Shown: in pieces, positions 4,645-48,071 of the stretch | Layout: each line of letters starts with the position of its first letter | Position numbering within the stretch: the first letter of the stretch is position 1 | Program-made: the position numbers and the translations under genes | NCBI GenBank assembly: GCA_963932905.1 | Contig: CAWVRN010000015.1 | Coordinates: 35,595-99,594 of the forward strand | Length of the DNA: 64,000 bases | From: an uncultured Bdellovibrio sp. | GTDB lineage: Bacteria > Bdellovibrionota > Bdellovibrionia > Bdellovibrionales > Bdellovibrionaceae | Direction: 5' to 3' | The notes under the pieces: generated by a model | Seen by the model: only the letters and a program-made list of their open reading frames with translations | Database searches by the model: none | Told to the model about the DNA's origin: nothing

Positions 4645-5391
4645 TTTATATTAAAAACAGTTCGTTATTGGCACATTTACTAGATTTATTACTCCGAAAG
4701 TAAATTTGCCTATCCCTCGGACATATCATATAAACTTTGATCTTGGGCGATACTTGCTGGGCAAAGCGCGCCAGGAGGTGACTTTGAAATACACCCACAC
4801 CTATCAGCAGCCAGCAAATACGTCTTAGAATAGTAATCAATTAAATTAGTTTATTGAATAATTTTTTCATTTATCTATCGAAAATAAACCACTAATACAC
4901 AAGCCATAGCGAAAAATTGGACTAAAGCCGATAGACTGATGGCTGTCATTCGCCTAACATATTTTTTGTTTATATTATAACTCAACAACCCTTACCTTAT
5001 GGTGAACTATGGCTCTAACAGATGCATACCTGATTACAACAAAAAATCTTGAATCTTTTCTAAACGCGATTGTCGCAGCAAGAGCACCAGATAAATTTAC
5101 CCAAAAATTCTTAGAGTCTTTAGAGTTTAAGAGTACCAATGACCGTCTTTTCATTAAGCTCTTAAGGTCACTTGGTTTCCTAGATGGAAACGGTACACCA
5201 ACACAACGCTATCATGACTTTCTCGATCAAACTCAATCCAAAACAGTAATGGCGGAAGCAGTCAAAGAGGCTTACAGTGACCTATTTAATGTGAAGAAAG
5301 ACGCCAATACATTGAGCGCTCAAGATGTAAAAGGGAAACTGAGGACACTTACTCAAGGAAAGAAATCTGATGATGTCTACAATTGGATGGC

Positions 5392-6688
5392 TGTCCGTCC
5401 TGACACATAGGTTACATTTTATACCGGACACATAGTTTACACTTTTCTAATCTAGGAGGGATTCCAATGGGTTGGAAGGAGTGTACAAAAATGGATGAGA
5501 AGTTAAAATTTATAGCAAGGTATCTTGAAGGTGAAAAAATAGCCCCATTGTGTAAAGAATTTGGTATCACCAGACCAACAGCTTACAAGCTGATTGATCG
5601 TTACAAGATGATGGGTCAATGTGCCTTGGTCGAACAAAAAAGAACACCGCATAGGTATGCGCATGCTTTACCAGTTCAAGTTGAAGCTTTGATTTTAGAT
5701 TTAAAACGAGAATACCCTGATTGGGGTGCGCCAAAAATCAGAGAAAAAATAATTAAAAAATATCCCGATGTTAAAACACCTGCAAAAAGTACCATACACG
5801 CAATCCTTGATCGCCACGGACTTGTTAAACACAGACTAGGTCGAAGAAGATTTAAAGTGACTGGTACACCACTAGAACATGTTACCGAGCCCAATCAGCT
5901 GTGGTGTGCGGATTACAAGGGTGAATTTATGTTGGGTAATCGACAGTATTGTTATCCACTAACAATAACGGATTATGCTTCAAGATATTTAATTAAGTGC
6001 GATGCTTTATCATCAACCAGAGAAGAATTTGCATTTGAAGTTTTTACGAGAGCATTTAAAGAATTTGGAATACCTGATTCTTTACGAACTGATAATGGAA
6101 ATCCTTTTGCAAATGGTCAGTCATTTTATAATTTAACAAAACTATCTGTCTGGTGGATGCGACATGGAATAAATTTAGAACGAATAAACCCCGGTCACCC
6201 TGAAGAAAATGGTCGTCATGAAAGAATGCATTTAACTTTAAAACTCGCAACAACAAGACCGCCAAGACCAACACTTGTTTCACAGCAAGAAGCATTCGAT
6301 CATTTTCAAAATGTTTTTAATAATGAAAGACCACATGAAGGAATAAAAAATAAATATCCTTCAGAAGTTTATAAAAAATCCGATAAAGAATATAAGAAAT
6401 TAGAACCATTATTTTACCCAATGCATGATCAGACAATCACGGTCACTCAGTGTGGAAGAATTTGCACCAAGACGCTGAAGGTATCTTTAAGCAGATCTTT
6501 TGCAGGTCAACAAGTTGGAATAAAAGAAATGGAAGATGGCCTCTGGGTCGTCAGTTTTATGGATTATGATCTAGGTTACTTCGATGAACGAGGTTCTAGA
6601 GTTGAACCAGTGGATGATCCTTTTGGATTTGAAAAAGTGTAAAGGATGTCTCCGGTATAAAGTGTAAAGTATCTATCCGGTATGGACC
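5392..6688 (+). mobile_element. IS481-family insertion sequence (~1297 bp)
   Basis: Imperfect terminal inverted repeats: TGTCCGTCCTGACACATAGGTTACATTTTATACCGGACACATAGTTTACAC versus the reverse complement of the right end GTGTAAAGGATGTCTCCGGTATAAAGTGTAAAGTATCTATCCGGTATGGACC. GGC direct repeat at 5389-5391 and 6689-6691. Confidence 0.88.
5467..6642 (+). CDS. IS481-family DDE transposase
   Basis: N-terminal HTH (LCKEFGITRPTAYK); rve core WCADYKG, RTDNGNPF, ENGRHERMH; RBS AGGAGG upstream. Confidence 0.92.
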   Translation: MGWKECTKMDEKLKFIARYLEGEKIAPLCKEFGITRPTAYKLIDRYKMMGQCALVEQKRTPHRYAHALPVQVEALILDLKREYPDWGAPKIREKIIKKYPDVKTPAKSTIHAILDRHGLVKHRLGRRRFKVTGTPLEHVTEPNQLWCADYKGEFMLGNRQYCYPLTITDYASRYLIKCDALSSTREEFAFEVFTRAFKEFGIPDSLRTDNGNPFANGQSFYNLTKLSVWWMRHGINLERINPGHPEENGRHERMHLTLKLATTRPPRPTLVSQQEAFDHFQNVFNNERPHEGIKNKYPSEVYKKSDKEYKKLEPLFYPMHDQTITVTQCGRICTKTLKVSLSRSFAGQQVGIKEMEDGLWVVSFMDYDLGYFDERGSRVEPVDDPFGFEKV

Positions 6689-6942
6689 GGCAAATACTTT
6701 CAATGCTCTATGTTCTTGGGCCGATTTTTCAACGAAGAAAACAACAACTCCTCTGCCAAACGACGAAGACTCCAGTCCACCGATCGACATTAAAAATGAC
6801 ATGGATGAAAAAAAGAATGCCTTACCTAAGCCTCAAAAACTTGATCTTCATTATAATATTCAGATTCATTTGCCAGAGACCAGAGATACAGCAGTATATG
6901 ATGCAATCTTTCAGAGCTTAAAAAAGCATATGGTTTAGTCCG

Positions 6943-7527
6943 ATGAAAAATTCTATATACGACTTCGTCTTTAAAGGTCTTCTAACAGAAAATGCACTCG
7001 ATAAAACTGACCGAATTCCGAAACAGGCATATTCGGCTTTCGTCGAAATGAGCACTGTTGATAAACTTCCATTTGAACTATTGGACGACAGTTTCTCAAG
7101 TGCAGGCAAAAAAATGGCGGCAGTCTATGTCGCCTTATTCTCTTTTGAAAATTCGGTACGAAAATTCGTTTCAGATTTACTTCTAGAAAAAGTCGGCGAG
7201 AATTGGTGGGTAACTTGTGTTCAACAAAATATGAAGCAAAAAGCAGAATCTCGTCTAGAGGAAGAAAAAAAGATTTTATGGCATGCTCCGAGAGGAGATG
7301 AACCGATAAATTTTCTAGATTTTGGTGACTTAGCAAAGATTATGACCAGCAACGAAAACTGGGCAAGATTTGAGCCGTACATACGAGACCAAGAATGGGC
7401 AAAAAATCTTCTCACCTCTCTTGAAAGATCAAGAAACGTAATTATGCATAGCGGATCACTTGGAGAGAGAGATATAGAGAGAATTGGAACTCTTATGGAA
7501 GACTGGTTGCAACAGATAGGTTCATAG
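6943..7527 (+). CDS. Swt1-like HEPN domain protein (putative RNase effector)
   Basis: LFSFENSVRKFV, GENWW, FLDFGDL and an Rx4H motif RNVIMH; starts 4 bp after the DUF5343-like stop. Confidence 0.75.
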   Translation: MKNSIYDFVFKGLLTENALDKTDRIPKQAYSAFVEMSTVDKLPFELLDDSFSSAGKKMAAVYVALFSFENSVRKFVSDLLLEKVGENWWVTCVQQNMKQKAESRLEEEKKILWHAPRGDEPINFLDFGDLAKIMTSNENWARFEPYIRDQEWAKNLLTSLERSRNVIMHSGSLGERDIERIGTLMEDWLQQIGS

Positions 7528-7615
7528 CATCAAAAACTGGAATACCACGGAACCCAATATACTTCACCAAGAGGAGTATTATCTAATTATTTAGAACCAT
7601 TCCAGGTTCCAAGAA

Positions 7616-7716
7616 TGGTGGAGGCGCCGGGAATGGACTCGCACCATCCTGGCGCTCGGGCCTGCGGCCTGGCTGCGCCATCCAAAAAGGACGTCATGTC
7701 CTTTTTGTGAACCCGG
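7616..7716 (-). repeat. att-like copy of the tmRNA 3' end with a 73-bp insertion in the T-loop
   Basis: 7616-7634 TGGTGGAGGCGCCGGGAAT and 7708-7716 TGAACCCGG match ssrA 20588-20615 exactly; 7635-7707 is the inserted sequence. Confidence 0.85.
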
Positions 7717-7753
7717 AGGACGATCTCAGAGTCTAATCGCGATGTATCTACAG

Positions 7754-7798
7754 TTTAAATAAAAAAACCAACCCGATGGGTTGGCTTTTTTATTTAAA
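7754..7798. terminator. Bidirectional intrinsic terminator
   Basis: TTTAAATAAAAAAACCAACCC-GAT-GGGTTGGCTTTTTTATTTAAA inverted repeat with A/T tails. Confidence 0.8.
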
Positions 7799-7885
7799 TG
7801 GTGGACTCCGAAGTGAGATGAACGAACTCCGATGGTCACCTATCAATATCAACTACACATTTAGCAGTATTACACTGCGATCCAC

Positions 7886-8665
7886 TTACTCTTCAAACTT
7901 TTTAAGCTTTCTTCTCAACACCGCCCACCATAGATCACCTTGATCAATAATTTCAATCTGAGTATTGTGCAAATGCCCATCTTCAACATCATTATTGGTC
8001 CAAGTTATCCGAATATGACAATAGTGAGATGGAACTAAAAAGTTATCGTTGCTTACAATTATGCATAAATCGTACGGAAGACCCGGCAACAGTCTGATGC
8101 TCTCTTGCTGGTTCCTCCTATGAAGAATCAATTCAAGTGGTTTGGACGGAGTCACCTTATTCGGCCCAACAATAGCGGTATCAAGGTAACAAAAATCAGC
8201 TCGATATTTATATCTACCTGGGATGATACAGCCGACTTGGAAGTCCCGATCTGTCTCCGACCAGTTCATTTCAAATGTTGTGAAGGGAATATGACCCGAC
8301 AACTTACCCGATCCAGCTGTCATTCCAACACACCAAATACGAGGAGACACCAATTTTACCCATCCTAAATTTTGAACTCTTAGGCGGTACCAGCTTTGGA
8401 TTTTTTTCAGTTCACTATTGCTGTTGTAGAACTTAACTCCATGAACGGCATCTCCGCTATCATGGCTAAAAGATACTTCCAGCTTCGGTCTCAAAAAAAT
8501 AAATCTTGCAGCGATTGGAATAAGAAGCAGAAAAATTCCTGAAAAACCCGTATTCCAGATATTAGGTGCTTCCCAAGGATCTACTGCAAAAGCAACAGAT
8601 GCACTGCTCATCAACAAGAAGATTATGCAAGTTCTGAAAAAAATCGTTCTATATTCTGGGCGCAT
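7886..8665 (-). CDS. Hypothetical membrane-anchored protein
   Basis: 259-aa ORF with two N-terminal hydrophobic segments followed by RPKLEV; overlaps the upstream ORF by 17 bp. Confidence 0.65.
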   Translation of the reverse strand: MRPEYRTIFFRTCIIFLLMSSASVAFAVDPWEAPNIWNTGFSGIFLLLIPIAARFIFLRPKLEVSFSHDSGDAVHGVKFYNSNSELKKIQSWYRLRVQNLGWVKLVSPRIWCVGMTAGSGKLSGHIPFTTFEMNWSETDRDFQVGCIIPGRYKYRADFCYLDTAIVGPNKVTPSKPLELILHRRNQQESIRLLPGLPYDLCIIVSNDNFLVPSHYCHIRITWTNNDVEDGHLHNTQIEIIDQGDLWWAVLRRKLKKFEE

Positions 8666-8942
8666 ATATCGTCACCGGAACCAAATAAGATCCAAAGTCC
8701 GCCGCATCTTGGGGCTCTCCAAGAGTATAGAAAAGTCGATTCAAATCACAAAGTCTTTCTAATTCGGGGTGAGCCATGCGAGCCAATACAACTCTTGAGA
8801 TAATCTCCCTCGTTATATAGTCACCGGCAGATATCTTGAGCAATTCCTTGGCTACCACCGGGTTATTGAATCCTTGAGCTTTAAGAAAACCATTTGATAC
8901 TTCCAAAGAATTTTCAGGCTGGATAGGCGAATACTTTATCAT
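8649..8942 (-). CDS. Small hypothetical protein coupled to the S8 protease gene
   Basis: 97-aa ORF with ATGA overlap on the protease stop codon. Confidence 0.55.
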   Translation of the reverse strand: MIKYSPIQPENSLEVSNGFLKAQGFNNPVVAKELLKISAGDYITREIISRVVLARMAHPELERLCDLNRLFYTLGEPQDAADFGSYLVPVTIYAPRI

Positions 8943-11176
8943 CGGTTTAGTCCCTGCTGAATTTCGATTGCAACCGGTTGCATGATCTCGAGCTGAGTTC
9001 GATACTTCTGTGCAATCTTATTGTAGAGATTCGGCTCCTTCGGCGCATGGACGGTAATGACCAGCGAATATGGAATAGACTTCGCCGAAGTTGCTTTCGA
9101 GGCTCCGTCTCTAGCCACATAGTGGATATCAAAAACAGGATCATTGAAGTTCGCGCCCTGTTTTCTGACTGAATTGTGCAACACGGGCTCCCACTTGTGA
9201 GCATCATTTCTCAAATCGCTCTCGGAAGGGAATAGCTTCGCGCTACTAAAAAACGGCTGCGTAACATCCAAATTATTTATGTCAGGTCTAAATGTGATAA
9301 CTAGGCCACTGTTAGTATAATTCGATGGCTCTTGGGAGTTTATCTCGCACGAAAAGCAAAATGTGGCTTTCACGGTTACCATTCCCGCAAGACCCGAGAT
9401 CATAGGGATTCTAGCACGAACATATTTCGACGGCTCCAAAGTTCCCTGATAAATTATTTTTGCCGTAGAATCATCGGATGTTAGAAATGTTTCAACGTCA
9501 TTCGATATGCGCCCCCAACCAACATCTGCCACCGGATGGTTTCCGTTATCGGTATGATGAATAAGCAAAGTTTTACATCCTAACGGTATCAATCTGTTTC
9601 CTAAAGTTGATCTCAATCCCGAAGAAACTCTTAAAGCAAGCGGCGAAGAAAAGCTTGTACCCAGTTCTCCTTGCGCCTTTGGAGAAATTCTTGAATCAAC
9701 AACAAAAAATGGTTCCTTCTCACAACCCCCAAAAGCAATTAAATCTGGCTTAATAAAACCAGGTGCTCGACCTGGTCCGATTGAGCTGTAGTCGGCTCGT
9801 CGCCACTGCCCAGGAGAAGTCGAATCAGATGCGCCCACCGCCAATCCATTTACACAGTCTGACGGCACCTGGATTCTCGCATTTCCCGAATCGCGATCCA
9901 AGTCGCCATCATTGCCAACTGCAAATGAAGCCAATGTTTTGCCATTACTTAAAAGTTGATCGAATGTTGCGGTCCATACATGAACATCATCATCTTCAAT
10001 TGGCAGATGTGGCCCAAGACTAAGATTTATAAAGTCGTATTCCTTCTGCTTTAGTACCGACGTTACTCGATCAAGAACATCAAACAAATCCTCATCAACG
10101 TCTAACTGTTGATCATAAACTTTATAGTGATCAACAGTCGAAAAGGGGGCTTGCACTGGCTTACCTGATTCTATGGGGCCAAATAAGAAAGCAGAGGTAA
10201 CAGCCTCACCGTGCGACAAATCCTCCTCATCAGGCTCGCCGTGTCCAACCAAGTCCTTGTAGTTTACCCAAGGAAGTAAATGTGAATTTTCCGGAAGCCC
10301 ACCATCAAATATAGCAGTTCTAATCGAAAGATCCGATGCCGCCACTTTAGGTAGTTCATACTCAACTTGCTTCTTTGCTCTTCTTCGAGTTTTTCTAACT
10401 CCAACCATTGGCATCCGTCGTATAACTCGCAGAAATGCAAACTTCTCCAATAGAGCAATTTCTTTCTTCGTAGCCTCTACTGGTAAAAAGCAAAGTCCTT
10501 GCGCGAAAATTCTTCTATCGATATCAACATCGACCTGAACCTTCTTTGCGTAATGCACAAATGAATCAAGTATAAATGAGTCTTCTTTTGCATCTGAACA
10601 ATGAATCGCCACCTCATAGAGTTTTTCATTTGAATGAGCCTCTTTAGATTTTTTAACTCTCTCGCCCGGATAAAATGGATGAATATCTTCAATTTTTCTA
10701 AAATCTTCTAACCACTTGATATCAGTCTCATCCATCGTAGAAAGATCAACTTCACCATCTCGCATAAAAATAATGTTATTTGCCCAGTTTTCAAAATTCG
10801 TTTTTTTCCCTGCAATAAAAAGTGTAGTTGTCAGATAAGAGTCTTTAACTTTTTTCTGAGTGACCTTATCGGGCGAGATTTTTGCTGGTCGGCTACCGAC
10901 AGATCGAAGATCATACGCCCTAAGCAATGCCTCCGGGAAGTAGCTCTTTGATAAATAACTCGGATGGATTGTCACCGGAGTAACTACCTGACCTTCGGGA
11001 CACGCAAGCTCTGGCAACTGAAGCAAAGAACCCACGGTTTCTTCAAGAGGAGTTGATAGCCGCAAAATAGCATCTTCGATAGAATAAGGATGAGACTTTG
11101 TTGGCTTTATTTTAGGAGGCTCGATGGATGCGGTAAGCCTCTCGCCAAATCCAAATAGAAAGTTCTTATTTGCCAT
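8939..11176 (-). CDS. ietS: S8 subtilisin-like serine protease (IetS-type)
   Basis: Catalytic triad AIFDGG / SHGEAV / GTSFSSP; oxyanion region AVGNDG; KPDLIAFGG; lies directly downstream of an AAA ATPase; no signal peptide. Confidence 0.85.
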   Translation of the reverse strand: MANKNFLFGFGERLTASIEPPKIKPTKSHPYSIEDAILRLSTPLEETVGSLLQLPELACPEGQVVTPVTIHPSYLSKSYFPEALLRAYDLRSVGSRPAKISPDKVTQKKVKDSYLTTTLFIAGKKTNFENWANNIIFMRDGEVDLSTMDETDIKWLEDFRKIEDIHPFYPGERVKKSKEAHSNEKLYEVAIHCSDAKEDSFILDSFVHYAKKVQVDVDIDRRIFAQGLCFLPVEATKKEIALLEKFAFLRVIRRMPMVGVRKTRRRAKKQVEYELPKVAASDLSIRTAIFDGGLPENSHLLPWVNYKDLVGHGEPDEEDLSHGEAVTSAFLFGPIESGKPVQAPFSTVDHYKVYDQQLDVDEDLFDVLDRVTSVLKQKEYDFINLSLGPHLPIEDDDVHVWTATFDQLLSNGKTLASFAVGNDGDLDRDSGNARIQVPSDCVNGLAVGASDSTSPGQWRRADYSSIGPGRAPGFIKPDLIAFGGCEKEPFFVVDSRISPKAQGELGTSFSSPLALRVSSGLRSTLGNRLIPLGCKTLLIHHTDNGNHPVADVGWGRISNDVETFLTSDDSTAKIIYQGTLEPSKYVRARIPMISGLAGMVTVKATFCFSCEINSQEPSNYTNSGLVITFRPDINNLDVTQPFFSSAKLFPSESDLRNDAHKWEPVLHNSVRKQGANFNDPVFDIHYVARDGASKATSAKSIPYSLVITVHAPKEPNLYNKIAQKYRTQLEIMQPVAIEIQQGLNR

Positions 11177-11196
11177 TTACGATCTCCGTTCTCAAG

Positions 11197-12309
11197 CTAA
11201 GCCTCTGCTCCCGAGCCAGCCTTTTTTCTAATGGTGTCCCGACTTACTCCGGTCAATTCACTAATTTTTCGCTGAGAGGCATGACCGCTTTTATAAAGTG
11301 AATCCGCTATATTCATCCGATCTTCGTGAGAGATTCTGTTCATAGCTAGGGCGATATAACTTTCAACCGCTGAGTCAAAGTTTCCATTTCCTAGTATCGC
11401 AGTTTTTTTAAGATTTTTTATCTCTCTAATAATTTCAGAGTGCGACTGGTCCTTAAATAAAAGTGTCAGAACAGACAACAGGTCGGGACCAATTTGTACT
11501 CGTCCAGACAATTCCGCCTTGATAATATCAGTAACCTGACCTTCAGTTGGGCGAGGAAAGCGAATAATGCGATCAAAGCGTCGCCATACTGCTGGATCTA
11601 AAAGTTCGTCGTGATTCGTTGCTGCTATAATAAGATTATCCGATGGCCACGCATCTAACTCTTGGAGGAGAACTGTTACAAGTCGTTTCAATTCACCAAC
11701 CTCAGCAGAATCATCTCTTTTTTTTGCTATCGAATCCAACTCATCTAAAAAAAGAACGCACGTCGAACTTTTTGCAAAATCGAAAACATTTCGGATATTA
11801 CTTCCTGTGCGCCCTAAGAAACTGCTCATGACTGCTGACAAATCAAGAGTCAACAACGGTAGCTTCAGGTCTCGCGCAAGTATCTTAGCAGATAAGCTCT
11901 TGCCTACTCCGGGTGGGCCGACAAATAGCACTGCTCTAGTCGCTTCTGCTCCAGCCAACAGTAATTCTTTTAAGCGACTTCGTTCTGCGACAATTTCGTT
12001 AAGTTCATTTTGTATTCGATCTAAGAGAATAGGCTCATTATCAATTATCGGATTTTGATCCACCTTCAAAAGGCTTAATCGAGTATCCCTATCTACCGGC
12101 ATTGAATCTATCTCATTAGATCGAACCACCGATGAACGCTTAGGTAGCTGATTTACAATGTCCGCAAGTTCTTCCGCCGCATCTGGATCCCATTTTTGAA
12201 TCTTTCTAATGAGGCGACGAATATAGAACTCTAGGTCCTTACGAGACCCAGTTAGGGATAGCCTTGCCAGCTGGACTATTTCATTTGAAATTTTCTTTAT
12301 CTCTTCCAC
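11197..12309 (-). CDS. ietA: AAA+ ATPase (IetA-type) with C-terminal HTH
   Basis: GPPGVGKS, LFLDELD, AATNH..LDPAVWRRFD; C-terminal SQRKISELTGVSRDTIRK. Confidence 0.85.
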   Translation of the reverse strand: MEEIKKISNEIVQLARLSLTGSRKDLEFYIRRLIRKIQKWDPDAAEELADIVNQLPKRSSVVRSNEIDSMPVDRDTRLSLLKVDQNPIIDNEPILLDRIQNELNEIVAERSRLKELLLAGAEATRAVLFVGPPGVGKSLSAKILARDLKLPLLTLDLSAVMSSFLGRTGSNIRNVFDFAKSSTCVLFLDELDSIAKKRDDSAEVGELKRLVTVLLQELDAWPSDNLIIAATNHDELLDPAVWRRFDRIIRFPRPTEGQVTDIIKAELSGRVQIGPDLLSVLTLLFKDQSHSEIIREIKNLKKTAILGNGNFDSAVESYIALAMNRISHEDRMNIADSLYKSGHASQRKISELTGVSRDTIRKKAGSGAEA

Positions 12310-12478
12310 TTAGATCCTATATTTATGTATTTTCAATAAGTTATAGTATCATTTTAACTGGACTAGATCAATACATTTTTAAACTAACTAGTCCATTGTT
12401 GCATTTTGAGGCGATTTAACCTGTCCTCCGCTTTTGTAGTGAAAAATATGGCCAACCATGTGCGACATAGCAACTCGA

Positions 12479-14269
12479 TTAAAAATTGATCTCAAGATCG
12501 ACAGCGATAGGGTCAATGGGAGCTGATGAATTTTGGATCATGGACTGCGACATATCGATGGCACCCGTGACCATCCATTTGCTGTTGTTCTGATTGAGAT
12601 TCTTTTTTTCGGTTCGAGATTGCTGCACACAAACCAAACCATTAAGAAATAATTTACGGAGAGCCGCATTTGCCAATGCTGAATCTCTCTCGAATAGCTC
12701 CGTCAGATTTTCAAAATGTTTTCTTATGCTAAAAATTGTCACAAGAACCTTATCCGACTCCGCAACCTGCAAAAGACGAATCTGCTCTTCAGTGTAACGA
12801 AGTTCTATTTCTCGCTCACCGAGATTTACTTTTACCAGTTCTGCCGAATCAGCCCCTTGTTCGATAAAGTTCATCAAATTGCGAACCTTGCGCTGAATTT
12901 CATTTCGCCTTTGCTGAAGCTGGCTTATTTCAACCGGCACTGATCTTAATCGCTGATTGATTTTTTTATTGATAATGCTTACTGCAAGTTGAATGTTCTG
13001 CTCGCTTAGAAGAATCTCCTTTACCTTCTCGACAACAAATTTCTCGAGCTTCAGGCGATGAATAAGGAATTTATTCTTACAAACCTCTTTGCTCTTTCTA
13101 TGATGTGTAAAGCAGCCATAGTAACCACCGCGACGACCAGTGATTTGCAGCATATTGGATCCACATTCAGAACATTTTAAGATTCCCGCCAACAGCGATT
13201 CAGATTTTGATCCAATCACTTTTGATGCTCGTGCGTATGAAAATGAATCGGTGCCTTCCTCTTTCTTACGGTATTCTCTTATCTCGATAGTTTTTTGAAC
13301 CTTTACCCAAGTATCAATATCAATGATTATCAAATCTTGCCGAATGTCTTTACCCTGATGATGCTTGACCCAAAGGTTTCGGGGCTGCTGTCGCTTTTCG
13401 TATTTATCCGTATCAGGATTCAGAATCCTTGTTGTCTTACCCCATTCCCATATACCGATGTACTTTTCGCGTGTCAGAATTTTCCGAACTGTGGTCTGAC
13501 TCCAATTACAGACGCGGCCAGTTCGAGTTCTCCCTCTTCGCGGAGAAGGGATATTTCGTTTATTTAAAAGTTTAGCCGTAGATGAAAAACCTAAGCCCTT
13601 TAAGCGCAGTTCAAAAATAAGTCTGACAACCGCCGCTTCTTCCAAATTTACTTCCAACTTATAATGCGACGGAATTTCAATTCCACCTTTTGGACGCGTC
13701 CTCGTTGGTATGCTGTTGTAGCCGTAACAAACATCGCCTGAACTAAAGCCATCAAGAACTCTAATCTCCTGACCTCGCTTAGTTCGATGGGCGAGATCCT
13801 CATTCGCCATCTGGTTCGCCATGCCCTTGAATGTGAAGTTGATCATTGAGTTAGGCTGCTCGGAGGAAATGCCGTCGCAAATGCTTATAAGTTCGATGTT
13901 GTTAAACTTCAGCAGCTTGTGCAAATTGACCTGAGTTCCAAGATCGCGGGTAAGTCTTGAAAGATCATCTACAATTACCGCATCGAACTTCTTTTGCCGA
14001 ATACCATTGAGAAGGGCTTCATAGCCAATGCGGCTTCCAACTTTGCCCGACACTGCTTCATCCTTGAAAATACACCCATCCATGATTTGAATTTGGTATT
14101 CGGCCAACGGAAATTTCGTGAAGATCACTTGGTTATTTTCAACCCGATATTGGATACGTCGAATTTGATCATCAGCCGATACTGGAGATTGGTTGTCTGA
14201 ACTGAACCGTGCATATAATCCAACACGGCAGATGTTTTTTGATTTTAGTATTGTCTGGCGCGTATTCAT
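12479..14269 (-). CDS. Large serine recombinase (integrase)
   Basis: YARFSS catalytic motif, DDLSRLTR, recombinase domain, zinc ribbon LLAGILKCSECG, coiled coil. Confidence 0.93.
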   Translation of the reverse strand: MNTRQTILKSKNICRVGLYARFSSDNQSPVSADDQIRRIQYRVENNQVIFTKFPLAEYQIQIMDGCIFKDEAVSGKVGSRIGYEALLNGIRQKKFDAVIVDDLSRLTRDLGTQVNLHKLLKFNNIELISICDGISSEQPNSMINFTFKGMANQMANEDLAHRTKRGQEIRVLDGFSSGDVCYGYNSIPTRTRPKGGIEIPSHYKLEVNLEEAAVVRLIFELRLKGLGFSSTAKLLNKRNIPSPRRGRTRTGRVCNWSQTTVRKILTREKYIGIWEWGKTTRILNPDTDKYEKRQQPRNLWVKHHQGKDIRQDLIIIDIDTWVKVQKTIEIREYRKKEEGTDSFSYARASKVIGSKSESLLAGILKCSECGSNMLQITGRRGGYYGCFTHHRKSKEVCKNKFLIHRLKLEKFVVEKVKEILLSEQNIQLAVSIINKKINQRLRSVPVEISQLQQRRNEIQRKVRNLMNFIEQGADSAELVKVNLGEREIELRYTEEQIRLLQVAESDKVLVTIFSIRKHFENLTELFERDSALANAALRKLFLNGLVCVQQSRTEKKNLNQNNSKWMVTGAIDMSQSMIQNSSAPIDPIAVDLEINF

Positions 14270-14604
14270 TAAACTGCAATCTCCTTTCTAATGATCTCGT
14301 CGCAAATGAGATCAAGTATTGTGTTGAGTCCTGCGTGAGTCTCATCAAGTTGCATGATATTCAGCTCACCGTTCGCATAAGGTCCCGTCTTCGCAATGGC
14401 CTTATACTTGTTTCTGCGCCATATATTGTGACAGCCACCACAGCGGCCTTCACGACGACCTCCCCCTTTGGGTGGAAATTGCAAAATGGGGAATGTCTGC
14501 TTGCAATCACGGCAAGTTCTTAGTTCGGCACACGCCCTCGTCTTATCAACGGGTTCAACGTGTTGGCACGAGACCTGAAAATCTTTTTCATCCTGTTGGT
14601 TCAA
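14269..14604 (-). CDS. Small Cys-rich (CxxC...CxxC) protein coupled to the recombinase
   Basis: CRDC and CGGC motifs; its stop overlaps the recombinase ATG (TAATG); start codon uncertain. Confidence 0.5.
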   Translation of the reverse strand: MNQQDEKDFQVSCQHVEPVDKTRACAELRTCRDCKQTFPILQFPPKGGGRREGRCGGCHNIWRRNKYKAIAKTGPYANGELNIMQLDETHAGLNTILDLICDEIIRKEIAV

Positions 14605-14783
14605 TGTTCATATACTACCTCCCCTCTGTCAGATTACGTCTTGGCAGTACCGCCCCTGTCCGACCCTTTTCCTGGAGGTGACTCTACCGATGCAGATTCC
14701 TGCCTCTAGCAAGAGTCACCTCTTAAAAGAAGGATAGCTACGCTATCCTTAAAGAGATCCCTACGGGACTCTTTTCTCCCACC

Positions 14784-15668
14784 TTAATGTTGAGAAAAAC
14801 CTCTAATGCCCTGGGTGTAAATCTCATTTAGGGTTGGCTGCATTTCTTCAAGGTCATAGAAATTACCGAACTTCTTTGCGAAATTGCCTTTATATTTTTT
14901 ATTGAGTTTCTTGCGAGTATGCCAGTAACCCCAACGCAGACATTTCTGTTCAAATTCAAAATAGTTTCGCCATACTTGAGGTCTGGCATTTTTTCTCGGT
15001 TCGATAAATCTAAAGTGGTGGGATGTACAACCAGCGAAGGGCTCGATCTCAAGAACTTGAGATAGGTTCTCTACACGCATTTCATCTTCAGGTTCCCAAG
15101 TAATTTCAATTCGAGAGCACGGGTAGTTGATAGTTTGCTGATTTCTCTTTGCCTTAGCTTTCATCTCTTTCGTCTTGTCGTAAATTTTAATTTCAATTTT
15201 CTTACCGAGTTTACCAACATAAGCAGTCTCACCTCTGCCTTCGACACCAACGTGCTTGATGTATCGGCGAAAGCCGAAGTCCAAGCCCATATACAAAGAA
15301 TAAAAGTCACAGGGAAAAGTTAGAGCAACATCGATATATTTGATATTGGCTCTCAGGCCGGGTCGGCCAAGAACAGACTCTATTGCATCAAGACAATCCC
15401 ATATAGTATTGAAGCGAGAAGGATTCAGACTAAATCTTAATCCAGCATCAAAAGCATCTGCGAAAAACAGAGTTGCTCCGTGCCCCTTCGGCAAGTCTTT
15501 GATGACGTACCCGTCACCTTTATTTGCCGATTGGGCACGTCCAATAAGGGCTTCTCGATCAAGAGGATAGTTGGTAGTAAAGACAAGTTTATCAAGAGAC
15601 GCGACAACCGCAGACTCGTGAACTCGTCCCGCGGCGACCTCGTCGAAAGAAGGAGTGAAGCTAATCAT
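14784..15668 (-). CDS. Rep_trans-like rolling-circle replication initiator/relaxase
   Basis: Motif order LDKLVFT, LNPSRF, YIDVALTF, GETAYVG, KIYDKTKE, RIEI matches Rep_trans/CRI-type initiators. Confidence 0.7.
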   Translation of the reverse strand: MISFTPSFDEVAAGRVHESAVVASLDKLVFTTNYPLDREALIGRAQSANKGDGYVIKDLPKGHGATLFFADAFDAGLRFSLNPSRFNTIWDCLDAIESVLGRPGLRANIKYIDVALTFPCDFYSLYMGLDFGFRRYIKHVGVEGRGETAYVGKLGKKIEIKIYDKTKEMKAKAKRNQQTINYPCSRIEITWEPEDEMRVENLSQVLEIEPFAGCTSHHFRFIEPRKNARPQVWRNYFEFEQKCLRWGYWHTRKKLNKKYKGNFAKKFGNFYDLEEMQPTLNEIYTQGIRGFSQH

Positions 15669-15921
15669 GCCAAACCCCCTCTGCGAGTGGGTCTCGGCGG
15701 AATTGATTCCGATAGGAAGTTACGACGGTATCCCCCATGTTATTGGGAGATGATTCGCCGTCTAAGTGTTGAAGTAAATCCCGTCTTAGGTCGTTCAGGT
15801 GTGTTAAAAGTTGCCGCCGGAAAAGGGGCAGCTTCCTGTCGTCGAAGTATATCGACTCTGCCAGATTTAGTATGGCATTGATCCGTTTATTTATTATTTG
15901 ATTTGTTTTTTTCTTTTTCAT
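15661..15921 (-). CDS. Small hypothetical protein upstream of rep
   Basis: 86-aa ORF with RBS GGAGG; overlaps the rep start. Confidence 0.6.
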   Translation of the reverse strand: MKKKKTNQIINKRINAILNLAESIYFDDRKLPLFRRQLLTHLNDLRRDLLQHLDGESSPNNMGDTVVTSYRNQFRRDPLAEGVWHD

Positions 15922-15989
15922 ATCGCCTCCATTGAGGCGAAGTTCTGCTTTAAATTTGTGAGATTTGCGATAAGTACTTAGGTAAGTGC

Positions 15990-16655
15990 TTATTTACTCC
16001 TACGTTTCCTTTTGAAATCCAAATCTAAGAGGGGGGCTTGTTCAATAAGTTTCTTTGCCATCTGTAAATTATTTGAAACAGTCTTGTGATGCCTGCTTGG
16101 CTTATTCGTCTTCGTTATTTCATAAAATTTAGGAAGGCGTTTTGCGATTTCATATGTAGATGCTTTGGGATTTTTTAAATGAACTTTGTAAGTAGCAATA
16201 ATCGTATCTAGTCGTTTTTTATCAAGCCGATTTCTTTTAACTGATTTCGCAACCTTCACTTTCATCTGTTCTTTTAATCCAAATACTTCTTTCTGAAAAT
16301 CAGCATAGTCTTTAGGCAAAAGATTTTTCATATCAAAGGCAACAAGAAGATATCGTGGTTCGTTTGGATTATCCGGTTGAAGCGTAGAAATGTCTTCGGC
16401 AATCACATTTTCACGCGTAATACTATTGTAGCTAAAAATGCCAAAGTTGGAAATTTTCTCAAAAAAGATCTCAGGAAGAATATCTGGATCCTCATCACGC
16501 CAATCTGGATAACTTCGCAATCCCCATCGTTTGTGAAGCTCTAGTAAGGTCAGCTCACCGGCAGTGTATTTGTCGTACATATTTTGATACTCAGAATTTA
16601 GCCTGAGAAACTGCCATGTATAGTATAAAACGTCTTCATCAAAATCTGGGTGCAT
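15990..16655 (-). CDS. Putative mobile-element transcriptional activator (DUF6499-like N-terminus, C-terminal HTH-like)
   Basis: TWQFLRLNSEYQ resembles the WEFLRRNxxY motif; C-terminal STYEIAKRL..KTVSNNL. Confidence 0.5.
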   Translation of the reverse strand: MHPDFDEDVLYYTWQFLRLNSEYQNMYDKYTAGELTLLELHKRWGLRSYPDWRDEDPDILPEIFFEKISNFGIFSYNSITRENVIAEDISTLQPDNPNEPRYLLVAFDMKNLLPKDYADFQKEVFGLKEQMKVKVAKSVKRNRLDKKRLDTIIATYKVHLKNPKASTYEIAKRLPKFYEITKTNKPSRHHKTVSNNLQMAKKLIEQAPLLDLDFKRKRRSK

Positions 16656-16795
16656 ATCAAATTGATTTTACTTTTTATGTCTCAGAAATGCAATGTCGGT
16701 GAACCGGTGTTCTTTTCTCTTACCCTACAAAATTTTATGAGAGCCTAGAGTGGCCTTTATTTATTAAGGACAATCCTAAAAAAACACACCGGGGG

Positions 16796-17410
16796 TCATA
16801 ACACAGCATCGACTCGAACTTGAGTTTGCTCGGTGAAGTGCAGATACATCGCGGTGATCGTAGGCGACGAGTGACCTAGGATTTTTTGAACTTCGGCGAG
16901 ATTGAACCCATTGTTCAGCAGAAAAGTAGCAAAGTGATGCCGAAGACTGTGATAGTTGATCGACCGTTCGATGTTGCACCTGCATCGCCAGTAAGTGAAC
17001 CGACGAGCAACGGCATGACGGGTGAAGGGCTCTCCATTTCGATTTAGGAAAAGGAAGGAATCTGATGTCACGGACTGGTTCATCAGTCCATCTTTCAGCC
17101 GAATGAGTTCGTCAATGGCGGCGCGTCCGCGTTTGCCGAGAGGAATTATCCGAAGCTTACGACCTTTACCGACCACCTTGACCGAGTTCTCTGCGATGTC
17201 GCCGATCTTGATATTGGCAGCTTCTGAAACTCGCAGACCAGTCAGCGAACCAATTAAAATTAGGAAGTAGTCGTTGATGAAATGAAGGTGTCTTCCGGTT
17301 CGCAGAGATTGCTCCATCGACGGTTTGATTGTCTTGAGCATGAGTTTAAGTTCGGAATCTGAGAGGATCTTGTCCTCGGTCAGCGCATAATTCTTGGGAT
17401 TTCGGTTCAT
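16796..17410 (-). CDS. Short tyrosine recombinase (catalytic domain only, Xer/resolvase-like)
   Basis: TGLRVSE, GKGRK, HSLRH, LGHSS, TAMY; start ATG at 17410 after AGGAGG. Confidence 0.9.
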   Translation of the reverse strand: MNRNPKNYALTEDKILSDSELKLMLKTIKPSMEQSLRTGRHLHFINDYFLILIGSLTGLRVSEAANIKIGDIAENSVKVVGKGRKLRIIPLGKRGRAAIDELIRLKDGLMNQSVTSDSFLFLNRNGEPFTRHAVARRFTYWRCRCNIERSINYHSLRHHFATFLLNNGFNLAEVQKILGHSSPTITAMYLHFTEQTQVRVDAVL

Positions 17411-18140
17411 TTTAGTCCTCCTGATCACCGTAGTTATCGGATCACAAGACTATCTTCCCAACTGATAACGGGTTCATCACCAGGCAAGATCGAACCGAAT
17501 TGATCGGCACTAGAACCATCACAGAAATCAAACGGTTATAAAGATAGTTACCAGAACAGAGATTTTGATAACTGGAATGAGATCAACCGATCAGCTTAGA
17601 GTTTTAGGGCCAGGCCACGGATTTACTACAATCTCCTCGGGAGCCCCCCATTTTGCACCGGTATTAATGGATTTAGTGGACGGGGCCGTCACCCAAAGAA
17701 GATACATCCAGTTTTCGATGGTACTTTTTGTACTGATTTTAGAAATCAATCACCGCAGAGACAAGGGCGGGAACTCGGAACTTTCTTGAGTGCTTTCAAC
17801 GTGTGGGCTAACTCCCTGACTTGCCATCTTTCTATCTAGAGGCATAACCAGGATTTTAAATACTTCTCTGGATCTATTATGCCTTGTTGATGTTTTTCCC
17901 GATCTCATTATTTGTCTATCTCTTTGGAATTACTTATCGATCAGTCTTTTCGGTTGGGCAGTATGCTCCTATCTTTTGTTACCTTTTTTTGTATTTTCTT
18001 GGACATTACGGGGACTCTCCCTTGGTAGTGTTGGCTTTTAAGTCTTTTCAGAACGTGCTATTTCAACGAATATTTAGGTCATTGCGGTAAGCTGCGGTGT
18101 TGCGGTGATCTGCGGTGGCATACACCTTTAATAGTTCTAT

Positions 18141-18662
18141 TTACTTTGCATCTGGCAATTTTGAACCAGTGTCTTTGAGCTGGCCAAGGCATTGACGAGG
18201 CTTTTCAATGCGTACAACTTTGCGACCTACTATCTCACCGTGAGTGAAAACCACGGCCTGCATATAGTCGAACTTCTTTTTAAGATCGTCAAAGCAGAGT
18301 CTGTATTTAGGGTGAACCTGTATTAAAAAATCTCCTTGCCCTTTAGAGCTATAGGCAAAGTGATAGTAGCCGTCATCGAAAATCTCATTCTTCAAATCAA
18401 CTGCATCGACATCAATTTGCATGATGTATCGCTGCCGCTTGCTTGAGTCGTTTTCGTAATCGGTTTTATCCTTTTTAAGAACATCCGAGTGAGGCAATTG
18501 CGGGAAATGTTGGTCTTTGACCATGCCCTCCCATTGCTTCCAAAGTTGGTGGTCGGCACGAGCCCCGCCAGGAGGAGACTCAATGGGTCCAAGATACTTC
18601 TTCTTGGCATTAGCGGCCATTGTTATAGAAAAGACTACTGCAATAATCATCATATGTTTCAT
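18141..18662 (-). CDS. Hypothetical secreted protein
   Basis: Signal-peptide-like MKHMMIIAVVFSITMAANA; RBS GGAG. Confidence 0.7.
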   Translation of the reverse strand: MKHMMIIAVVFSITMAANAKKKYLGPIESPPGGARADHQLWKQWEGMVKDQHFPQLPHSDVLKKDKTDYENDSSKRQRYIMQIDVDAVDLKNEIFDDGYYHFAYSSKGQGDFLIQVHPKYRLCFDDLKKKFDYMQAVVFTHGEIVGRKVVRIEKPRQCLGQLKDTGSKLPDAK

Positions 18663-18671
18663 AGGTTCTCC

Positions 18672-19013
18672 TTATCCCTTTCGTCTAAGTCTTCTAGCTG
18701 AAATTTCAAAAATGCCGGAGAAGCTAGGATCGGGCTCAGAATCAAAAAGTTCGGCCATTGAAATTTCCTTAGGTTCAACCCGACTATCTGATCCAGTAAG
18801 TAGCCACTCAAAGGAGCAGCCCAATGCCCGACATAGCCGTTGAACTGCAATGTGATCATTTGGTACAGAGCCAGCCAACCAATCGTTCAAAGTTGCGGGT
18901 GTCACATTTGCGATCTCGGCTGCTGATTTTTGCGAAAGTCCACGCTCTGCAAGAATTGATTTTAAATTCTTAGCTAACGGGCTTTGAATTTTCTTGCGAG
19001 CAGGTTTGGGCAC
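18672..19013 (-). CDS. XRE/Cro-CI family HTH repressor
   Basis: LAERGLSQKSAAEIANVTPATLNDW..LCRALGCSFEWLLTG. Confidence 0.88.
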   Translation of the reverse strand: MPKPARKKIQSPLAKNLKSILAERGLSQKSAAEIANVTPATLNDWLAGSVPNDHIAVQRLCRALGCSFEWLLTGSDSRVEPKEISMAELFDSEPDPSFSGIFEISARRLRRKG

Positions 19014-19154
19014 AGACGAACTCCTCCAGCCAAACCAATCGGCTCAAACAAAACCAGAGTTCAACTAAATCCGGTTCTGCTGATTGATTCGGTTCTTCTT
19101 ATTTTCTATGGAGTTGGTTCGATTGGCACGTAGTTGGACCAAAATGGACCGAAA

Positions 19155-19790
19155 CTAAGAGTCCCCATCTCGACGCGCAGGAATTGATTCATAGTAGGCC
19201 ATTATCTCCGCCCACAATTTTTGATAGTTTTCTAAATTGAGCCATGCTTCTGGATCTCCAACTGTACCAAATCCCGATGGGCTCTTTACCCTTTGTCCAT
19301 CAAGAATTTTGCGTGTTGACTCAAACTGTTCTCGACTCTTAGGTGCTGGGTACCGACCAAGCCAGTAAACATACTCGGTCATTACATCAAGCAATCTTCG
19401 CTGAGGATCTGTGACAACAAATCCTGCATCTTTTGCGATCTTATTTAGTTGATGAATTGGCTTTAGGTTCTCGCAATGGCCGTCCCGTTTAACGATACAC
19501 GCTTTTAGAAGTAGTTCGATAGCCAATCCAGCATTTAATCGAAAAATAGGAGGAAGAGCTGCGCCAAACGCAAAACCAGATCCAAGGCCTAATACTTCAG
19601 GGGACACATTTACCGGACTATCTTTTTCACACACATTACCTAGAAGAACTGCGGCTGCATTAAGGTCTGAAGCTCTATTTCGCCAATACACTCCAAATCG
19701 AATGTTGATGTCGTAGCGGTCCCACACTCTCTCGTATTCATAAGAGCAATCTAAATCTTCAGTTGGATGAAGCTTCTCGAATTTTTTCAT
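19155..19790 (-). CDS. HEPN-like domain protein
   Basis: GLAIELLLKA, HQLNKIA, WLGRYPAP; likely start MKKFEK at 19790 after AGGA. Confidence 0.55.
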   Translation of the reverse strand: MKKFEKLHPTEDLDCSYEYERVWDRYDINIRFGVYWRNRASDLNAAAVLLGNVCEKDSPVNVSPEVLGLGSGFAFGAALPPIFRLNAGLAIELLLKACIVKRDGHCENLKPIHQLNKIAKDAGFVVTDPQRRLLDVMTEYVYWLGRYPAPKSREQFESTRKILDGQRVKSPSGFGTVGDPEAWLNLENYQKLWAEIMAYYESIPARRDGDS

Positions 19791-19809
19791 ATTTTTAATT
19801 CCTACCGAC

Positions 19810-20367
19810 TTAGATTTTATCGAGCTTGGCTTTAAGGCTCGATTGTATAGGAGAATTGAAAAGAACGGAGACTTCCTCCCCTGACAGTTCCTCACTCTCA
19901 TATAGTTTTTCAGCGATCAATTTAATTGCCGGTTTAAATGGGGTAAGTGTTCTTAATACCCAGGAAAGCTTCCAATCGACATAGGCTCTGACTAGCGGAT
20001 TTTCAATGTCAGCAAGTGTTCCAGGATTATTGACGGATAATTTGACCGTTGCGTTTTTAAACGTTTCATCAAATTCCAACAAATCCTCGATTAGTTCAAT
20101 TGCGCCAACTAAGTCAGTATGACTGCGATATATAGTGTATCTGCCCGATATCAATACCTCGCCGACAAACCCTGCTAAAGAGATTCTGATTTCCCGAAGA
20201 GCTTCGTCAGGATTTGTTATTTCTCGTGCGGGCGGTTCTGTTGACATCACTCCACGGTATTTATCGGTTCCTTTTATCGAGATTCTTTTTATCTTTAAAC
20301 CATGAATAGTGGCCATAACGGCGTGAGCAGTCTCATGGTATGCAGTTTTCAACTTTTCATGATCCAC
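19810..20367 (-). CDS. Stand-alone M41/FtsH-like zinc metallopeptidase domain
   Basis: TAYHETAHAV (HExxH), SLAGFVGE, IAEKLYESEELSGEEV; probable GTG start at 20367 after AGAGG (track ORF extends to 20403). Confidence 0.7.
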   Translation of the reverse strand: MDHEKLKTAYHETAHAVMATIHGLKIKRISIKGTDKYRGVMSTEPPAREITNPDEALREIRISLAGFVGEVLISGRYTIYRSHTDLVGAIELIEDLLEFDETFKNATVKLSVNNPGTLADIENPLVRAYVDWKLSWVLRTLTPFKPAIKLIAEKLYESEELSGEEVSVLFNSPIQSSLKAKLDKI

Positions 20368-20587
20368 GCCGTAACCTCTTTGCTCCAATCGTCCCCATCC
20401 CATAAAAAAGCCCGAAGTCTGTGTTGTCTCAGCCCTTCGGGTTCAACGTTTTCGTCCCCAATTTCTATTTCTGGATTTGCCGCAAATCAACAGCGGCCAA
20501 GATCAACTATTTAAAATCCGTATCTAATTTTCAATTCCAAGTTCCCGAGAACTCACGGGGACGACCCGGGTTCTCAAACTCTGAAAT

Positions 20588-20940
20588 TGGTGGAGGCGCC
20601 GGGAATTGAACCCGGGTCCGCAAGAGTTCCACGAAAAGGCGCTACATACTTAGTCACTGTTTTTAGTTAGGCTATCGGACTTCCAACGACAAAATTCCAA
20701 TAGTCACCCCCGCAGTTTATTTAGGTCGGTGCCCTGTAGAGAACAGCACTCAACCGGTACGGCATTAATAACAGATCTTCAGCTCAACACCGTCGATTCA
20801 ACTGAGATCCGTGACAGAACTAAGCTGCCATTGCAACGTTTTCGTTAGCAAATAATAGTTTGCACCTTTTTAACGAGGTCCCTGTGCGCCCCGGTATGCT
20901 CCCTTTGCTTCACTTCCCACGTCGAAGCCATGTCGCCCCC
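20588..20940 (-). ncRNA. ssrA: tmRNA (tag reading frame ANENVAMAA*)
   Basis: 5' GGGGGCGACATGGCTTCGAC; 3' GGACCCGGGTTCAATTCCCGGCGCCTCCACCA; internal GCT AAC GAA AAC GTT GCA ATG GCA GCT TAG. Confidence 0.96.
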
Positions 20941-47973: not shown

Positions 47974-48071
47974 ATGCCGGGTCCCATACAATGGCTTTGA
48001 TGACGAACCCCGCTAGGTCCGGAAGGAAGCAACGGTACTCGTCGAACCATGTGATATGGGGTGCTCGGCAT
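47974..48071 (+). ncRNA. ffs: Signal recognition particle 4.5S RNA
   Basis: CCGCTAGGTCCGGAAGGAAGCAACGG domain IV inside a long hairpin; located upstream of dnaX. Confidence 0.92.

Follow-up and report, generated by a model that had tools for sequence, protein, structure and literature searches.

Several described systems resemble the locus reported here, and they are compared as portrayed in excerpts of the papers cited. The Dehalococcoides ssrA islands (DsiB + DsiA; PMC3146451), proposed to be integrative mobilizable elements (IMEs), show insertion at the ssrA 3' end directed by a large serine recombinase (LSR), a second small recombinase, tandem accretion and no transfer genes. The streptococcal Rep_trans/MOB_T IMEs (PMC5704250, PMC7563843) combine an integrase with a Rep_trans nickase, lack a type IV secretion system (T4SS) and depend on a helper integrative and conjugative element (ICE); their Rep_trans proteins are replication initiators, relaxases or both. 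Tycheposons (bioRxiv 2020.12.28.424599) target tRNA and transfer-messenger RNA (tmRNA) genes, have modular replication genes and small serine recombinases, and leave cargo in islands. In pIGRK (RepR + MobK), SGI1 (MpsA) and pCW3 (TcpM), a tyrosine recombinase consisting of the catalytic domain only has a repeat-rich site directly upstream, and pIGRK and SGI1 also carry no T4SS. Here we report an element of 12,789 bp at positions 7799-20594 of the window, i.e., the 64,000-nucleotide stretch of contig CAWVRN010000015.1 analysed from the genome (G000) of an uncultured Bdellovibrio sp. We read it, with a probability of roughly 0.6, as a helper-dependent IME belonging to a modular Bdellovibrionota family. 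Its logic is closest to that of the Dehalococcoides ssrA islands, with traits of Rep_trans IMEs, tycheposons and pIGRK, and every part of it has a precedent.

The differences lie in the combination. According to the excerpts, the Dehalococcoides islands are bounded by a 20-bp repeat, whereas that found here is 7 bp; dsiB overlaps attL, whereas the LSR gene here is internal and co-oriented with ssrA (in relatives G153 and G177 it does overlap); and they carry RecF, ParB and Mom genes in place of the replication, FseA-like and CxxC genes seen here, where the small recombinase may also be of the tyrosine type. Gene content and layout likewise differ from the six-gene module of the Dehalococcoides ssrA islands. 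The streptococcal Rep_trans IMEs listed in those papers have tyrosine integrases, and the site-specific serine IMEs described there disrupt their target gene; our element differs further in having no coupling protein, in its Gram-negative host and in being known from sequence alone. Tycheposons, set apart here by description, mostly have tyrosine integrases at one end and primase/helicase modules, in contrast to an internal LSR and a Rep_trans gene. No description of this element family was found in the literature searched, a scope that left most subscription journals outside, and the loci may be present without a name in large island databases such as TIGER.

Both element cores are the heptamer TCCACCA, the last 7 nt of the intact host tmRNA gene (ssrA), whose 3' end is the target and which is co-stranded with the element genes. 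Comparison of the ssrA loci of relatives, suggested in an initial annotation of this DNA, uncovered an empty site in one of nine congeners, G077 (G numbers denote the genomes searched and L numbers fetched loci). There, ssrA is followed directly by the terminator and ~190 bp that match window positions 7805 to 7616 at 88%; therefore, the element runs between the two TCCACCA cores. Behind ssrA, the remaining eight congeners carry different islands or different sequence; the element core genes were absent from their fetched ssrA stretches. The element is thus larger than the initial annotation had drawn it, and the cores set by the empty site replace the att-like ends assumed there. A 19-bp ssrA copy (7616-7634) was considered as attR and ruled out, a diverged copy being located at the same place in the empty-site genome; it lies outside the element, as part of an older neighbouring island. 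Sequence comparison shows that insertion at the last 7 nt leaves ssrA undisrupted, and the core genes are intact. A metagenomic contig (40.8 kb) with ~92% identity over 12477-16790 carries the XRE gene and other cargo, and joins the same attR arm with the IetAS-like genes skipped. A repeat scan of 5000-30000 returned only chance-like families and insertion sequence (IS) ends, and a promoter/terminator scan returned nothing above shuffled sequence. Counting against the IME reading, the attP joint was not found in the contigs of two DNA sequencing runs. The ~190 bp beyond attR (7616-7798) are non-coding, 88% kept in G077, and include a terminator, GC-rich inverted repeats and an ssrA-3'-like end, with no Rfam match.

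The gene content fits an IME, with its own site-specific integrase, an att-bounded insertion and no complete conjugation apparatus. The eight co-oriented genes named in the initial annotation are all present as open frames on the minus strand, with the family matches given in Table 1. Families were searched with Pfam (14/14 element open reading frames, ORFs), NCBIfam (12/14) and PHROGs (11/14), and no T4SS, coupling, capsid or terminase family was matched, in line with what had been claimed; four ORFs (259, 97, 86 and 173 aa) are without a family over the cut-off and may have a disguised function. The adjacent AAA ATPase and S8 peptidase genes form an IetAS-like pair by PADLOC, both below NCBIfam equivalog cut-offs. 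The earlier view of one integrative element with the LSR as its integrase and defence-like cargo is supported. Two proteins, Rep_trans and the short tyrosine recombinase, are relaxase candidates, and the origin of transfer (oriT) is a candidate only.

To place the element in a family, we searched 151 family genomes, 390 class genomes and genome contigs for the LSR, 401 genomes of the phylum for the short recombinase and 384 of the order for the arm pattern. Among genome contigs, the LSR gave 80 loci, from which the Bdellovibrionota loci L047, L048 and L062 were mapped (L049 is the G177 locus), the other 76 showing 25-33% identity. Five relatives (G128, G211, G300, G327 and G527, the last being L048 and counted once) share the scaffold, in the order small recombinase, regulator, replication gene, CxxC gene and LSR. 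An XRE homologue is present in four of the five, the CxxC gene in all, and the LSR in all at 44-46% identity (the G327 copy is cut by a contig end), and the cargo differs in every member. The small recombinase slot is filled throughout, by the short tyrosine type in G211 (89%) and G527 (63%) and by a small serine resolvase in G128, G300 and G327; these resolvases are accompanied by a conserved upstream region of their own, different from the tyrosine-type sites but placed like them. The replication slot holds a DnaB-type helicase in G211, a winged-helix protein in G300 and a 397-aa protein without an assigned kind in G327. In an LSR tree of 15 rows (G327 and G364 left out), G128 (serine resolvase, Rep_trans) stands beside G211 (tyrosine recombinase, DnaB) with support of 100/99, and G000 beside G300 with 85/87, so that the small recombinase slot differs between sister LSRs twice. 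Since sister LSRs have different slot contents, both the small recombinase and the replication gene must have been exchanged more than once. Points that weigh against our reading are that the DUF6499 match recurs, weakly, in only three of the five relatives and a Rep_trans-like protein in two, at 16-19% identity.

The conservation of the scaffold in five relatives excludes two separate nested remnants, on which the initial annotation would have failed. Its proposal of an element family in predatory bacteria stands in that the element recurs in Bdellovibrionota, but the trio of LSR, Rep_trans and short tyrosine recombinase does not define the family, occurring as such in two of six members (the short tyrosine recombinase is replaced in 3/5 relatives and Rep_trans in 3/5). 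Outside the scaffold, G289 combines the short recombinase and a related Rep with tyrosine integrases, with no LSR in the contig and no P' arm. As side observations, the G128 element has an exported staphylococcal-nuclease-like gene in the secreted-protein slot (L018:11593-12096), followed after the LSR (L027) by ORFs that we take to resemble QatA/B/C, with no PADLOC match for the one ORF run; the 24.5-kb G527 element contains as cargo what is presumably a Kdp-like potassium transport operon (L048:11822-21244), named from sizes and N-termini.

The Rep_trans fold proposed for the replication protein (Rep) was borne out by structural comparison: the best six matches of the Rep model are all Rep_trans initiators (4cij, 4cwc, 4cwe; best E 7e-8), with RepSTK1 and RepDE first, although the model has a predicted local distance difference test score (pLDDT) of only 61 and a template-modelling (TM) score of 0.35. 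The Rep profile aligns with RepDE across the RxDxAxD and IYNK motifs. Corresponding to the metal ligands D46, D142 and E214 and to Y191, K193 and R212 in RepD numbering (PMC4797284, in excerpt), Rep has a metal site of D26, D113 and E188, the catalytic Y163, K165 and R186, all six invariant in 10/10 sequences; D113, Y163 and K165 were aligned to RepDE directly, and D26, R186 and E188 were assigned by motif order. The spacer that follows Rep folds unusually well as single-stranded DNA (Table 1). Several observations tell against a canonical initiator with its origin. Rep scores just below the Pfam cut-off; RepD R140 and D146, called strictly conserved, are Y111 and T117 in Rep, a Thr occupying the latter position in 6/6 close homologues; and a hairpin after Rep is found at the same place in only one of four relatives (G289), and is thus not general. 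Sequence cannot separate a replication-initiator, relaxase or dual role. The Rep alignment had no match in genome contigs, phage records or viral contigs; its single match in metagenome contigs is 100% identical, probably stems from this very assembly and was not counted. Other Rep_trans-like genes beside LSRs were noted at L048:8478-9554, L006:7735-8727 and L007:9667-10659; in L006 and L007 the partner is an unrelated 500-aa LSR at tRNA-Asp, a separate IME-like family.

The short tyrosine recombinase has the active site R60 K85 H154 R157 H180 Y189, with R-K-H-R-H-Y invariant in 7/7 sequences, and is under purifying selection. Its model (pLDDT 86) shows the Xer-type catalytic fold only, the core-binding domain that is part of the definition of simple Xer/Cre-type tyrosine recombinases (PMC8138268, in excerpt) being absent from its 204 aa. 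All 5 close homologues are preceded by an 11-6-11 inverted repeat (site I), whose half-sites recur 75 bp further on around a 16-17 bp spacer (site II). The 6-bp centre of site I differs in all five copies at constant length, and in G527 the four half-sites have changed jointly. A profile built from G527 and G289 alone ranked the G000 site first of 571 candidates (29.4 vs 15.0 bits); in the leave-out scan, site I alone ranked second and only the four-half-site pattern ranked first. When the regions upstream of short recombinases were scored simply for inverted repeats, 1/11 reached significance; the case for site I rests on its position and the leave-out profile. Site I, present in one copy in the element, agrees with the inverted half-sites around a 6-8 bp spacer of simple Xer/Cre-type tyrosine recombinases and is a candidate crossover site of the short recombinase; six distant homologues (~30%) shared no upstream site. 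The protein also matches a FimB/FimE-type NCBIfam model (E 3e-8). FimB/FimE-type invertases are also short, but a second inverted site was not found. A second clade of ~210-aa, catalytic-domain-only tyrosine recombinases (~30% identity) was seen at L145:11272-11904 and in L164, L165, L166, L167, L168 and L169, on islands that carry tyrosine integrases, DnaB-type helicases or ORFs that, by a motif, are presumably small-terminase-like.

Two readings of this recombinase compete. The chances are about even that recombinase and site form an exchangeable cassette for multimer resolution, which is favoured by the alternation with a small serine resolvase that has its own upstream site. It weighs against a resolvase that the literature examined holds no clear precedent for one without a core-binding domain, unlike for a relaxase. 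Nothing relevant on minimal or short tyrosine recombinases was found in the literature searched. Core-binding-less tyrosine recombinases are, according to the excerpts, known as conjugative relaxases with oriT just upstream (PMC8152469, PMC6414798, 10.64898/2026.01.13.699239), and a less probable but serious alternative, which the initial annotation did not consider, is that the protein is a MOB_M-like relaxase, that sites I and II are its oriT and that Rep_trans only replicates. MobK, TcpM and MpsA have neither arm- nor core-binding domains, and the MobK oriT lies just upstream of mobK and contains imperfect inverted repeats (PMC8152469); 96% of MOB_M genes are near an integrase (10.64898/2026.01.13.699239). 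The short recombinase is moreover kept in G211, where a DnaB-type helicase replaces Rep_trans, occurs also in islands with tyrosine integrases, and aligns with TcpM (hhalign probability 88%). However, its profile scores host Xer-like proteins at 87 and 81 bits compared with 24 bits for TcpM, the only MOB_M sequence compared; the weak likeness to TcpM, the greater closeness to Xer and the 11-6-11 geometry also set it apart from the MOB_M relaxases, of which MobK and MpsA were compared by description only. The sequence at the centre of site I varies freely, which is not expected of a nick site, no G-quadruplex-like tract lies on the sense strand upstream (4/4), and in other members the slot is taken by a serine resolvase together with a site of its own.

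The 221-aa protein has the motif TWQFLRLN (WxFLRxN) near its N-terminus, and the same motif occurs in three relatives; FseA of ICEMlSym, which is likewise encoded upstream of an excision/nicking operon, has AWEFLRRN (PMC10359603, in excerpt). On the basis of this DUF6499 helix motif, the 221-aa protein is probably an activator of the downstream operon. Among its Atlas neighbours, 23% of the members of the fourth-ranked cluster carry DUF2285. In contrast to FseA as described in that excerpt, the protein is a single ORF with no Pfam match to the DUF2285 hidden Markov model, neither an FseA box nor QseM was identified in the element, and the element is not an ICE. The 280-aa ORF of G289 is not detectably FseA-like. 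The CxxC gene overlaps the LSR start, and its full-length matches in the order genomes are confined to the five genomes with this layout (four of them in the alignment); a CxxC profile search was swamped by zinc-finger repeat proteins. Its product, which resembles the zinc fingers of phage endonucleases, is a candidate directionality factor or regulator, the role in directionality being a guess.

We infer excision, amplification and transfer of the element from its parts, and conjugative clusters of the host could serve as the helper. VirB4-like, coupling-protein and LSR genes occur together in three clusters (C1, C12 and C22), and there are three further VirB4 clusters and two MOB_C-like matches beside other VirB4 clusters; no sequence shared between the element and these clusters was found, which weakens the case for them. 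The genome as a whole is unusually rich in integrated elements, with at least 6 VirB4-containing clusters and ~8 further LSR matches (C1, C3, C12 and C22). From the earlier wording, "satellite/IME-like", the IME half gains from this available helper and the phage-satellite half has no positive support. A phage satellite, i.e., a circle that would multiply upon infection and be packaged with the aid of a helper phage, in the manner of a tycheposon, a phage-inducible chromosomal island (PICI) or a filamentous-phage satellite, is improbable. Its size, its repressor, replication and integrase layout, its defence cargo, the resemblance of CxxC to phage zinc fingers and the small serine recombinases that tycheposons too carry would all suit one, but no PICI- or tycheposon-type packaging or interference gene was found (no terminase, capsid or other PHROG packaging match in 11 ORFs; no small terminase, terS, or major capsid protein, MCP, by Pfam). 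Nor did viral contigs or phage records contain a Rep relative, viral contigs a P' arm, or the host a match to Terminase_6N, the one family searched, and FseA-like regulators are described from conjugative elements (PMC10359603, in excerpt).

The LSR is the only recombinase common to all six members. It has Resolvase, Recombinase and zinc-ribbon domains, its catalytic S23 is invariant in 10/10 sequences, and its best NCBIfam match is CcrB (E 2e-31, below the cut-off). In 6/6 members the core is followed by the same P' arm layout (TCCACCA, 7 free bases and a stretch ending in GAACCC), which has one match in the host genome. In the left arm, the GTTC end lies at -18 from the core in P arms and at -13 in ssrA, corresponding to the 5-bp shift described between attP and attB of serine integrases (PMC3783163, in excerpt), which argues for the LSR as the likely integrase. 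Four junctions (G000, G527, G301 and G300:C7) were fixed without the -18 criterion, and GTTC occurs at -18 in 5/663 background TCCACCA sites. A GAACC-like mirror follows the RNA gene in all eight examined loci where LSRs of this clade abut tRNA-His, -Ser, -Glu or tmRNA (seven GAACC, one TAACCC), at the same distance, and in 0/4 control tRNA ends. The LSR very probably made the ssrA insertion, with the T-loop GGTTC serving as the attB zinc-ribbon motif. Set against this are the attR ends of G211 and G300 and two cassette ends, which were chosen by the -18 motif; the reconstructed arms, symmetric only to within 1 bp; the 7-bp core, which also fits tyrosine chemistry; and the frequent separation of arm and LSR, the latter being present in only 1/20 further arm-bearing stretches (8 of them <11 kb) and its clade not found in 9/10 arm-bearing genomes searched. 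The right arm has no clear motif on the host side.

It is very improbable that the LSR is a passenger with other sites and that the insertion is due to the short tyrosine recombinase or to a tyrosine integrase since lost. The short core, congener islands in which tyrosine integrases use the same ssrA end and arms in genomes without this LSR would be in keeping with it, but three of six complete members have the same P' arm without the short tyrosine recombinase, G289 has that recombinase without the arm, and the recombinase has a different, internal site; the 5-bp shift and the arm motif behind tRNA ends overlapped by LSRs of this clade also point to the LSR. Least credible is that the island is dead or that nested remnants piled up by chance: modules are clearly exchanged and family remnants exist (a truncated recombinase in G017), but all core ORFs are open with catalytic residues, both att arms are intact, codon changes relative to G211 are 88 synonymous vs 20 non-synonymous, and the metagenomic contig above combines its match to 12477-16790 with other cargo.

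The P' arm occurs in 23/384 order genomes, compared with 5 genomes with one match each for a reversed control. Arm-bearing stretches without the LSR are read best as remnants and integrase-free cassettes. Cassettes bounded by P' and P arms with no integrase were found in G188 (834 bp), G335 (807 bp) and G301 (5,398 and 539 bp). Such cassettes (0.5-5.4 kb; L207:435-1275, L216:414-1227 and L211, which is G301), some in tandem, lie in genomes that gave no match to the LSR clade. The same P' arm also follows a tRNA-Ala ending in TCCACCA in G312 (L212:419-520), and the target may therefore extend beyond ssrA. A bolder and rather unlikely picture is that the attB motif of the LSR clade is the universal tRNA/tmRNA T-loop, that the LSR, as a passing visitor, also moves single-gene cassettes of 0.5-5 kb, which lack an integrase and are bounded by the two arms of the LSR, into tandem ssrA arrays, integron-like but on serine chemistry, and that the 204-aa tyrosine recombinase uses a 28-bp site without a core-binding domain, possibly doubling as a relaxase. 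The literature searched held nothing relevant on T-loop-reading LSRs with non-autonomous cassettes, and the excerpt of PMC10083194 makes no mention of tRNA or ssrA targets.

Read as a helper-dependent IME, the element would work as follows. The LSR would, with high probability, recombine an attP circle with the ssrA 3' end as set out above. The XRE protein would silence the core until the FseA-like protein turned on the operon of the 86-aa ORF, Rep, CxxC and LSR, a step for which the odds are level, and CxxC might, more doubtfully, shift the LSR towards excision. Rep_trans would then likely nick the circle and start rolling-circle synthesis for copy number, MOB_T-like relaxase transfer or both. 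The short tyrosine recombinase could equally well resolve multimers at site I as not, with site II as accessory site or operator. The strand would exit via the T4SS of a co-resident conjugative element, which we favour slightly, and the IetAS-like and HEPN-like cargo would, somewhat more probably, protect or stabilise.

Table 1. Features of the element and its insertion site in the window.
Feature	Position	Strand	Evidence or remark
attR core TCCACCA, then the host terminator located behind ssrA in the empty-site genome	7799..7805	-	Empty site
P arm, GAGTTC at 7824-7829; GGGTTC in ssrA is 5 bp closer to the core	7806..7830	-	Sequence comparison
Cargo, 259-aa ORF, no family	7886..8665	-	Pfam
Cargo, 97-aa ORF, no family over cut-off	8649..8942	-	Pfam
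Cargo, IetS-like S8 peptidase	8939..11176	-	PADLOC IetS E 5e-35; below NCBIfam cut-off
Cargo, IetA-like AAA ATPase	11197..12309	-	PADLOC IetA E 5e-86; below NCBIfam equivalog cut-off
LSR, 596 aa, likely ssrA integrase	12479..14269	-	Resolvase + Recombinase + Zn ribbon (Pfam)
CxxC zinc-finger protein, 111 aa, coupled to LSR start	14269..14604	-	Before LSR in 5/5 relatives
Hairpin-rich spacer, candidate origin of replication or transfer	14605..14783	-	DNA fold z -4.85, 0/200 shuffles
Rep_trans-fold nickase (Rep)	14784..15668	-	Rep_trans E 2e-6, 28 bits vs cut-off 29.6
86-aa ORF, no family, no homologue found in related loci	15661..15921	-	Pfam, PHROGs, locus comparison
FseA-like (DUF6499-type) putative transcriptional activator, 221 aa	15990..16655	-	Trans_reg_dom = DUF6499, Pfam E 1.3e-3, below cut-off
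Tyrosine recombinase, 204 aa, catalytic domain only	16796..17410	-	Phage_integrase E 3.5e-31; start = ATG behind AGGAGG
Site II, same half-sites as site I around a spacer of 16-17 bp, 75 bp away and directly ahead of the ribosome-binding site; candidate accessory/operator	17432..17470	.	Sequence comparison
Site I, 11-6-11 inverted repeat, candidate crossover site of short tyrosine recombinase	17546..17573	.	Same place in 5/5 close homologues
173-aa protein, probably exported, no family	18141..18662	-	Signal-peptide-like N-terminus by eye; homologues 51% (G211), 69% (G327)
XRE-family repressor	18672..19013	-	HTH_3 E 6e-10; 58-84% identical in 4/5 relatives
Cargo, HEPN-like ORF, start uncertain	19155..19901	-	Pfam HEPN E 0.005 only; no PADLOC match
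Cargo, M41-peptidase-like, 197 aa	19810..20403	-	Pfam PF01434 E 5.5e-8
P' arm, GAACCC at 20568-20573, mirror of T-loop GGGTTC; candidate LSR zinc-ribbon-domain motif	20561..20587	-	Conserved in relatives
attL core TCCACCA, last 7 nt of ssrA	20588..20594	-	Empty site in congener G077
Host tmRNA gene (ssrA), intact	20588..20940	-	ARAGORN, Rfam RF00023; 3' end = target

The element offers a route of gene flow that is defined and can be tested, for a phylum of predatory bacteria in which the literature searched contained no such element. An LSR with a predicted site at the conserved ssrA 3' end, which it leaves unbroken, would be attractive for engineering Bdellovibrio and other bacteria. The very small tyrosine recombinase, swapped with serine resolvases, gives a clean test of whether catalytic-domain-only proteins act as resolvases or MOB_M relaxases, a question left open in the excerpt of PMC8152469, and the integrase-free cassettes suggest how accessory genes accumulate behind ssrA. 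With its defined sites, the tyrosine/serine exchange and these cassettes, the family makes several questions directly testable, and its parts could be useful.

Beyond attR, a second, older defence island starts at the 19-bp ssrA copy and extends from window positions 1-7634 to ~C15:31800. In it, an IS481-type element separates the two genes of a PDC-M34A/B-like pair (DUF5343 + HEPN_Swt1); a PDC-S37-like helicase of 1639 aa and other ORFs are also present. On the other side of the element, the bacterial small signal recognition particle (SRP) RNA is encoded at 47975-48073.

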